Source of the DNA: Escherichia coli
GTDB lineage: Bacteria; Pseudomonadota; Gammaproteobacteria; Enterobacterales; Enterobacteriaceae
DNA: 64,000 nucleotides
Strand: one strand, 5' to 3'
NCBI RefSeq assembly: GCF_030384885.1
Contig: NZ_CP128613.1
The translations under genes and the position numbers were made by a program. Positions 9,230-10,538 of the stretch are shown in pieces. The notes beneath the pieces were generated by a model. It did no database searches. It was not told the DNA's origin and worked only from the letters and a program-made list of their open reading frames with translations. The first letter of the stretch is position 1, and each line of letters begins with the position of its first letter.

Positions 9230-10495
9230 ATGCGCTCTGTTATTGTTGCTTTTTTATTTGCCTGTTCATTCTGCGTTTCTGCTGAAACTGTTAATTTAAA
9301 TAATTCATCTGTTCGCTCATTTGTTCAGTGGTATTCTTCAAAAACTGGCAAGCCTGTTATTGTTAATCCTGATATTAAAGGAAACGTAACCGTATTTAAT
9401 GCTGATGTTAATCCAGCAAATATTGATGATTTCTTTAAGTCTGTTCTGAATGCTAACGGTTTTGTCATGCTTTCTGGCAATCCTGCGGTAGTCTCTTTGC
9501 CGTCTAAATTACCTTCACAGATGGTTTCGGATTCCGATGATTCTGATAACCAGTCTTATGATACTTTTCCTTCTGAGCCATCTTACCAGCCAGTACCTGT
9601 GGCGCTTACGGTCAGAAATTTTAAGCTGACAAAAGTTAGATCGTCCGATGTTCAGCAACTGATTAAAATTTATCTTGATTCTAATGGTGGTGGTAATGTC
9701 GTGGATTATCCAGGCAATAACTCGCTGATTGTTTCTGCGCCTGACGAGCTGCTGCCGGTTCTGTCCGATTTTATCAATTCTGTGGATGTTGCCCGCGATC
9801 AGGTTCTCATTCAGTCGCTGATGTTTGAAACCAGCTTGTCTGATGGCGTTGATTTATCGTTTGCGGCAGGTTCTGCATCCGGTCATAAGGTTGCGGGGGG
9901 CTTTAATACTTCTGCACTGGGTAGCGCTCTTTCTACGGCGGGCGGTTCTTTTGGTATTTTTGATGGTAACGTGTTGGCGCTGTCTCTGCGTGCTGTCCAG
10001 AGTAATTCACGCTCTAAGGTGATTTCAACGCCGCGTATTCTTACTCAGTCTGGTCAGACTGGTTACATTTCCGTAGGTAAGAATGTGCCGTTTATCACCG
10101 GAAAGGTAACGGGCGAATCTGCCGGGGTAAATAATCCGTTTCAGACTATCGAGCGTCATGATGTTGGCGTTTCTCTCAAGGTAACGCCTGTTGTCATGGG
10201 TAACGGGCAACTAGTTCTGACTATCGACACTCGCGCTGATTCAATCAGCAATGATGATCAGGCATCCGATATTATTACTAATCAGCGCCAGATTCAGACG
10301 ACAGTCCAGATTAAGGATGGTCAGACGTTGTTATTGGGAGGGCTTATCGATTCATCGTTCAGCAATGCCGAGCGTTCAGTTCCAGTTATAAGTAAAATTC
10401 CTCTTATAGGCTGGATTTTCAGTAGCAAGGCAGACAGCAATGAACAGCGTATTATGTATATTTTGCTTACAGCACATATCATTCGTCCACTTTGA
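9230..10495 (+). CDS. Secretin pIV, copy 2
   Basis: Same as 655-1920; ATG 9230 with GGAG RBS; overlaps end of gene I region as in Ff. Confidence 0.85.
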   Translation: MRSVIVAFLFACSFCVSAETVNLNNSSVRSFVQWYSSKTGKPVIVNPDIKGNVTVFNADVNPANIDDFFKSVLNANGFVMLSGNPAVVSLPSKLPSQMVSDSDDSDNQSYDTFPSEPSYQPVPVALTVRNFKLTKVRSSDVQQLIKIYLDSNGGGNVVDYPGNNSLIVSAPDELLPVLSDFINSVDVARDQVLIQSLMFETSLSDGVDLSFAAGSASGHKVAGGFNTSALGSALSTAGGSFGIFDGNVLALSLRAVQSNSRSKVISTPRILTQSGQTGYISVGKNVPFITGKVTGESAGVNNPFQTIERHDVGVSLKVTPVVMGNGQLVLTIDTRADSISNDDQASDIITNQRQIQTTVQIKDGQTLLLGGLIDSSFSNAERSVPVISKIPLIGWIFSSKADSNEQRIMYILLTAHIIRPL

Positions 10496-10538
10496 TGGAT
10501 AGCGGGTAGGTGCGTGAGCCCTGCTCGCTATCCATCAA
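10492..10538 (+). terminator. Large perfect hairpin at the end of gene IV; candidate terminator / packaging-signal hairpin (copy also at 1917-1963)
   Basis: 13-bp perfect inverted repeat TTGATGGATAGCG / CGCTATCCATCAA with 21-nt loop; gene IV stop codon lies in the 5' arm. Confidence 0.5.

Follow-up and report, generated by a model that had tools for sequence, protein, structure and literature searches.

What is the role of the long hairpin that lies at the end of gene IV in a filamentous prophage of Escherichia coli? The prophage occupies part of a 64,000-nucleotide stretch of contig NZ_CP128613.1 (assembly GCF_030384885.1); we call this whole stretch the window and use its positions throughout. 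A preliminary description, made from the letters of the window, had reported a perfect 13-bp stem at this site and offered it as a candidate packaging signal or terminator. Our analysis leads us to regard the hairpin, at 10485–10544 on the plus strand of the complete prophage copy, as probably the packaging (morphogenetic) signal of this prophage, which belongs to the CUS-1/YpfΦ family. On this reading it is an orthologue of the IKe signal and the analogue of hairpin [A] in the Ff phages. The assignment draws on the predicted fold, its conservation and covariation, and the annotation of the IKe homolog. The class is well known, and this hairpin is an ordinary, previously unannotated member of it.

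The two 13-bp arms, TTGATGGATAGCG at 10492–10504 and CGCTATCCATCAA at 10526–10538, are separated by 21 nucleotides, and the TGA stop codon of gene IV (10493–10495) sits within the 5′ arm. These coordinates had been given exactly in the preliminary description, but the 21 nucleotides that it took for the loop are mostly paired. Folding as DNA and as RNA extended the helix both inward and outward, to a hairpin of 60 nucleotides with 27 pairs, two bulges (C10490 and T10511) and a 4-nucleotide GTGA loop at 10514–10517. The outer helix pairs GTCCA (10485–10489) with TGGAC (10540–10544) and ends at the bulged C10490. A central run of 20 bp joins 10491–10510 to 10520–10539 and includes the wobbles G10505·T10525 and T10507·G10523. 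Above it, just past the bulged T10511, the apical pairs G10512–C10519 and C10513–G10518 close the tetraloop.

Calculation of folding energies had been proposed as a check, and the fold passed it well. As single-stranded DNA (ssDNA) the hairpin has a predicted free energy (ΔG) of −25.3 kcal/mol, against −9.1 ± 2.2 kcal/mol in 200 dinucleotide shuffles, none of which folded as well (z = −7.5); as RNA its ΔG is −49.2 kcal/mol (z = −8.3). Across the whole phage unit it is the most stable 70-nucleotide ssDNA segment, with a z of −7.1 relative to the phage’s own segments of that size. By our own arithmetic, 64 kb of sequence should contain about 0.02 perfect inverted repeats of 13 bp with no more than 25 nucleotides between the arms. 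An Rfam search with the hairpin matched no family. Positions 1–2701 of the window are identical to 8576–11276 (100% identity across the 2,701 nucleotides visible in both copies; repeat unit 8,575 bp), so an identical hairpin lies at 1910–1969 on the plus strand, in the upstream partial tandem copy. There, the covariance model described below matches 1906–1979 with 100.3 bits.

We collected relatives by scanning IMG/VR with the gene IV protein, pIV. The scan returned 47 loci with protein identities from 100% down to 40%, including phages IKe (6,883 nt), I2-2 (6,744 nt) and If1 (8,454 nt). All 13 distinct sequences of the IKe/CUS-1 type, IKe and I2-2 among them, have a hairpin that starts at the stop codon of gene IV. 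When eight relatives of the If1 type are added to these 13, every one has a hairpin at the gene IV stop, with ΔG between −17.5 and −27.7 kcal/mol. The comparison with Ff, IKe and I2-2 that had been suggested thus places a hairpin at this position in each of them and shows that it is conserved in related phages. At 11 more distant secretin loci (40–43% identity), no structure was found at the gene IV stop (z about 0).

Within the IKe/CUS-1 type, the apex is nearly invariant, while the lower stem varies freely yet remains complementary. The apical pattern is GG-T-GC-GNNA-GC-CC, with a bulged T and a GNNA tetraloop closed by two GC pairs (GGTGCGNNAGCC). Invariant columns of the 74-nucleotide alignment are G29, G30, G32, C33, G34, C39, C40 and C41, and only GGTnGGTGCG of the ascending limb is common to all clade members. 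Loci L007–L015 carry an apex variant of the GGGTGCGTTAAGCCCC type, and the apex of L020 is GCGAAGC. In the window the conserved apex, CGGGT-A-GGTG-C-GTGA-GCCCTGC, covers 10503–10524 on the plus strand.

Of the 16 IMG/VR matches to the motif GGTAGGTGCGNNAGCCCTGC, 15 are in inoviruses, one to a contig and solely after gene IV. The sole match not reached through pIV (L062) was rejected as a chance match, with no hairpin at that site. Inside the 64-kb window, the apex motif occurs only in the two hairpin copies, against 0.01 occurrences expected. We also ran a 15-base gapped pattern against 298 Gb of genome contigs; all of the matches listed were chance ones in unrelated, mostly high-GC genomes, because a pattern of 15 bases is too short for that volume of sequence.

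The complementarity of the stem was examined in two ways. In an alignment-free chimera test, cognate 5′ and 3′ arms folded with −22.1 kcal/mol, compared with −11.3 ± 4.0 kcal/mol for arms taken from different phages, and the cognate partner was the best one in 11 of 14 cases, the exceptions being close relatives. MAFFT followed by RNAalifold recovered just five apical pairs because the covarying arms cannot be aligned by sequence. We therefore turned to a covariance model for which only the window and one 91% relative served as input, and applied it to 13 other loci; each gave a single match, on the plus strand and at the gene IV stop in every case. In these 13 sequences outside the model, standard pairs filled 89.4% of cells, compared with 70.6 ± 1.5% after shuffling and 29–51% with slid partners, although the alignment is fitted by the model and so favours structure, a bias of which the chimera test is free. 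Changes on both sides were present in 19 of the 27 pairs (11.2 ± 1.6 after shuffling). The covariation score was 0.536 against 0.205, and none of 500 shuffles reached any observed value, and a separate count of our own agreed; since the sequences are related, such shuffle controls overstate significance, a problem that is lessened by the slid-partner control and by the chimera test. Because the relatives share the hairpin, its conserved apex and compensatory changes in its stem, what had been put forward as a positional analogy with Ff becomes homology, and the packaging-signal reading is supported: IKe, I2-2 and 11 other relatives all carry this hairpin at the gene IV stop.

Perfect inverted repeats can be operators, which raises the question of whether this one acts as double-stranded DNA, or is a chance palindrome, with no single-strand function in either case. 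We consider this highly improbable. The z value of the ssDNA fold and the compensatory changes count against it, and a protein operator would not allow the free variation seen in the stem. The types of mismatch are equally telling: the alignment contains 49 G·T or T·G cells at 15 pair positions and 3 A·C or C·A cells at 3 positions, an excess that is not expected of a duplex palindrome. The minus strand also folds less well, with −20.8 kcal/mol for the reverse complement against −24.8 kcal/mol for the plus strand. From the G·T excess and the weaker reverse-complement fold, it follows that the fold has been selected in the plus sense, that is, on the packaged strand or on mRNA, and neither as a duplex palindrome nor on the minus strand.

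The GenBank record of IKe (NC_002014) labels 6141–6196 as a “morphogenetic signal”, and a 2023 preprint gives the IKe packaging signal as nt 6141–6197 (bioRxiv 10.1101/2023.12.30.573655). Our covariance model matched IKe at 6137–6207 (4294–4364 of locus L022) with an E-value of about 1e-6, overlapping the annotated signal, and it matched the equivalent site of I2-2 as well. Like the hairpin in the window, the IKe signal has the gene IV stop inside its 5′ arm and a long imperfect stem with a bulged T and a GNNA loop closed by GC pairs, and its apex (GGGTAGGTGCGnnAGCCCTGC) is nearly identical. For the Ff signal, CGGGT followed closely by GGTG has been described on the ascending limb of the stem and attributed to Russel & Model 1989 (bioRxiv 10.1101/2023.12.30.573655). 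The window has CGGGT at 10503–10507, then A, then GGTG at 10509–10512; IKe has the same CGGGT-A-GGTG, and f1 has CGGGT-GT-GGTG. The two tip proteins are encoded in the same genome as the hairpin. Gene VII (6046–6132, plus strand, 28 aa) encodes the one expected to recognise it, and the pVII C-terminus, SFGLGAITAGVFR, is identical between the window and IKe and near-identical in all clade members examined; pattern searches of loci that reach only 3 kb upstream of gene IV found no pVII, as the gene lies beyond their ends. Gene IX (6132–6227, plus strand, 31 aa) encodes the second, similar to IKe pIX. It is because the IKe annotation, the covariance match, the CGGGT…GGTG motif and the pVII C-terminus all agree that we favour orthology of the two signals.

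The two elements also differ. The lower stem in the window is entirely different from that of IKe, through compensated changes, and it is longer and more regular (27 bp, −24.5 kcal/mol), whereas the IKe stem is more interrupted (−18 to −21 kcal/mol). The IKe hairpin stands at the start of an unbroken intergenic region of about 730 nucleotides with both origins, while the hairpin in the window is followed by a cargo open reading frame (ORF). A blastn comparison of the IKe intergenic region with the phage found similarity at the end of gene IV and in the hairpin’s 5′ half but none further on, and no IKe-like origin. IKe and I2-2 are non-integrative; the phage in the window integrates at dif through XerCD, and its pV belongs to another family. 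The gene V product (5726–6043) matches Pfam PF17426 (Putative_G5P) and has no evident similarity to IKe pV. The presence of IKe-like pVII, pIX, pIV and hairpin beside an unlike pV points to a modular exchange of the replication and ssDNA-binding module.

Hairpin [A] of the Ff phages (f1/M13/fd) likewise forms on the plus strand, starts at the gene IV stop, which in f1 lies within the hairpin base, and carries CGGGT and then GGTG on its ascending limb. The f1 hairpin is longer (about 78 nucleotides) and has a different apex (GCGCAGCG, common to the If1-type clade), and the short motif is the only sequence that can be aligned. The eight If1-type loci (L024–L032) have a different hairpin from that of the window, about 0–60 nucleotides past the gene IV stop, with a covarying stem and a conserved apex, CTGCGCAGCGGGG, that resembles the f1 apex. 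Together these comparisons suggest two classes of packaging signal, one of Ff and If1 and one of IKe, I2-2 and CUS-1. The integrative Xanthomonas phages (φLf-UK and relatives) also use a DNA hairpin for packaging, but theirs is 20–26 nucleotides long with a stem of 7–8 bp, lies inside the replication gene, works in either orientation and has another consensus (bioRxiv 10.1101/2023.12.30.573655). The element in the window is of the Ff/IKe type and not of the Xanthomonas type.

Selection in the plus sense would also suit a role in RNA. The hairpin stands where the last core gene ends, its RNA fold is very stable, its plus-sense wobbles suit RNA as well as ssDNA, and the IKe record adds “pot. transcription termination” to its label. 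It could thus be a terminator or 3′-end stabiliser of the gII–gIV core transcript that insulates the downstream genes orf102 and orf77 and has no part in packaging. We think this unlikely. An intrinsic-terminator scan found none at the hairpin, where a stem is present but the tail that follows it, ATTATTGATTGGGG, has no T-run, and relatives have no consistent T/U tract either; the terminator half of the preliminary description is therefore not supported, as far as intrinsic termination is concerned. Furthermore, the hairpin is kept where there is no downstream cargo gene (L008 and L017) and in the non-integrative IKe and I2-2, and a near-invariant apex that shares the motif of the f1 packaging signal is not expected of a terminator. 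A dual role is possible, with packaging combined with rho-dependent termination or mRNA stabilisation.

The preliminary description had also mentioned a further nested palindrome at about 10876–10916. It exists, at 10875–10919, and forms the first of two stems (the second at 10921–10972) of a conserved non-coding element at 10875–10972 on the plus strand, with a ΔG of −22.1 kcal/mol and a z of −4.0. Mean identity over this element is 79% in seven relatives, with a few compensatory changes. Between it and the gene IV hairpin lies orf102 (10565–10873, plus strand; PHROG 4115, function unknown). In L008 and L017 orf102 is missing and the two-hairpin element is only about 75 nucleotides past the gene IV hairpin, and in L007 and L012 another ORF lies between the two. 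As orf102 is absent or replaced in relatives that keep both flanking elements, it occupies a cargo slot right after the packaging signal. By the same token, the two-hairpin element is not merely the terminator of orf102, since it is kept in relatives that lack that gene.

This arrangement bears on whether the gene IV hairpin might instead be the minus-strand origin, where host RNA polymerase or primase would make the primer on the infecting plus ssDNA. The hairpin is indeed specific to the plus strand, and the L020 apex, GCGAAGC, is a very stable DNA mini-hairpin found at origins of ssDNA phages. Even so, we regard an origin at this site as quite improbable. Minus-strand origins of the Ff type need two adjacent hairpins, the gene IV hairpin is single, and in IKe the origin is annotated separately, at 6333–6385 and 6410–6438, downstream of the hairpin. 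The two-hairpin element is the better candidate because the order of a packaging signal followed by two hairpins mirrors the Ff and IKe intergenic regions. We propose the element as a putative minus-strand origin purely as a working hypothesis by analogy; its sequence does not resemble that of the IKe origin.

Integration of the phage takes place at dif, and the GGTGCG of the apex, which is shared with dif (GGTGCGCATAA), looks like the beginning of the XerC arm of that site. This invites the idea that the hairpin belongs to the XerCD integration site, as a folded attP of the kind seen in CTXφ, which has a large hairpin only in the plus ssDNA of a dif-integrating filamentous phage. We find the idea scarcely credible. 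The junction produced by recombination lies at 2701/2702 and 11276/11277, some 740 nucleotides from the gene IV hairpin, and has a forked hairpin of its own with XerC-like and XerD-like arms. The gene IV hairpin lacks such Xer-binding arms, including any XerD-like one, and the non-integrative IKe and I2-2 have the same hairpin. The role of the CTXφ-type attP(+) is filled by the junction between the tandem copies at 2685–2785 (plus strand), a CTXφ-style folded attP with inverted XerC-like (ATTGGTGCGCATAATG / CATTGTGCGAACCAAT) and XerD-like arms around an unpaired central region (ΔG −33.5 kcal/mol over 115 nucleotides; compare PMC4266046). Its apex, GGCCGCTGCG…CGCAGCGGCC, is followed by TTTTC on the minus strand and resembles the terminator of an AbiJ-like gene. 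The attP of a circular Salmonella episome, described below, has the same sequence as the junction in the window.

How would the hairpin act as a packaging signal? In Ff, the signal is left uncoated by pV and is engaged by pVII/pIX and pI (PMC10175506). If the phage in the window follows Ff and IKe, the hairpin would stay duplex on newly made plus ssDNA and so escape coating while pV covers the remainder, and it would protrude at one end of the pV–DNA rod. At the inner membrane, the pVII/pIX tip together with pI/pXI would recognise it, and recognition would set off both the exchange of pV for pVIII and extrusion by way of the pIV secretin. The hairpin would in this way determine which way round the DNA lies in the virion, being itself at the pVII/pIX end. 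In a secondary role, its RNA form may delimit the core gII–gIV transcript at the 3′ end.

Several points weigh against the packaging assignment. The packaging role is predicted from sequence and fold, and covariation has no power to separate a role in ssDNA from one in mRNA, since both are in the plus sense. For the functional mapping of the IKe and f1 signals (primary papers: Peeters 1985/87, Russel & Model 1989) we relied on GenBank annotation and a secondary citation, and we found no published description of a packaging signal for CUS-1 or YpfΦ. The larger attP hairpin at 2685–2785 could in principle also stay uncoated. Finally, the loop sequence of the Ff signal has been reported to be dispensable (bioRxiv 10.1101/2023.12.30.573655), so the Ff model does not explain the invariant apex.

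The element that carries the hairpin is a CUS-1/YpfΦ-family inovirus, tandemly duplicated at the chromosomal dif. A perfect, intact E. coli dif, regenerated there, marks the right end of the prophage array at 11263–11290 (plus strand). Pfam and PHROGs searches gave a gene order of the Ff type, gII-gV-gVII-gIX-gVIII-gIII-gVI-gI(Zot)-gIV. The gene II product has Phage_CRI and G2P_X_C domains. Gene IV (9137–10495, plus strand) encodes a 452-aa secretin with Pfam domains Secretin, Secretin_N and GspD_N0, and its last four codons and stop lie within the 5′ arm of the hairpin. Downstream of it are orf102 and orf77, both small ORFs of unknown function, and genes for two proteins of 60 and 189 aa and for an AbiJ-like one lie at the left end on the opposite strand. 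Dif integration, tandem copies, two ORFs of unknown function beside attR and variable ORFs beside attL have been described for the CUS-1/YpfΦ family (PMC4266046), and the organisation seen in the window fits the family because its layout agrees with that account.

Copies of the segment at 10300–11000 that are at least 99% identical occur in 48 of 5,426 complete genomes of E. coli, among them that of the uropathogenic strain F11, where the copy adjoins hipBA. An identical hairpin is found in NZ_CP140410.1 (locus L187), a circular 7,938-bp Salmonella enterica episome that contains a complete phage genome and is probably the replicative form of this phage family. It was deposited as a small non-mobilizable plasmid (“plasmid unnamed2”), and its left-end cargo is a Doc-family toxin gene. 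In a collection of phage genomes, the prophage as a whole had no close relative; similarity was limited to short stretches of gene IV in IKe and the PEar phages.

Other features of the locus were recorded alongside. The product of the left-end cargo gene at 2786–3715 (minus strand) is 309 aa long and contains AbiJ N-terminal domain 4 and DUF7014; this filamentous prophage may thereby carry a gene for abortive infection or defence. Other genes take its place in E. coli F11 and the Salmonella episome, and because of this difference we view the left end as a variable cargo slot. Gene III contains 15-nucleotide tandem repeats at 7136–7255 that code for GGGES-type units, a glycine-rich linker typical of pIII. 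A branched hairpin at 4687–4756, in the 5′ part of gene II, is the phage’s third most stable ssDNA structure (ΔG −17.8 kcal/mol). Outside the prophage, at least eight tandem 60-nucleotide repeats (63–76% identity) at 13111–13787 lie in a minus-strand ORF of 477 aa (12992–14425), which may be the gene of a repeat-containing surface protein.

The packaging signals of integrative filamentous phages were described in 2023 as largely unknown (bioRxiv 10.1101/2023.12.30.573655). Our finding leaves the understanding of filamentous-phage assembly unchanged. What it provides is a precise annotation of a 60-nucleotide signal for about 1% of complete E. coli genomes (the 48 of 5,426 noted above), and a cis element for phagemids or transducing particles of the CUS-1/YpfΦ family. 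Both CUS-1 and YpfΦ are filamentous prophages associated with fitness, and their hosts are extraintestinal pathogenic E. coli (ExPEC) and the plague bacillus. The combination of an invariant apex with a freely varying stem predicts which nucleotides are read by the pVII/pIX/pI machinery. We tentatively suggest, as a possibility that may well prove wrong, that the apex GGTGCGNNAGCC is a sequence-specific recognition code that defines a packaging-specificity class of IKe, I2-2 and CUS-1 and is inherited together with the pVII C-terminus SFGLGAITAGV(F/L)R. If this is true, the hairpin would be a fixed boundary beside a variable cargo insertion, which is orf102 here and other ORFs or none in relatives. 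Replicons that gain the hairpin of about 60 nucleotides would then be mobilisable by CUS-1/YpfΦ prophages of ExPEC, Salmonella and Yersinia pestis, or could be cross-packaged by IKe.

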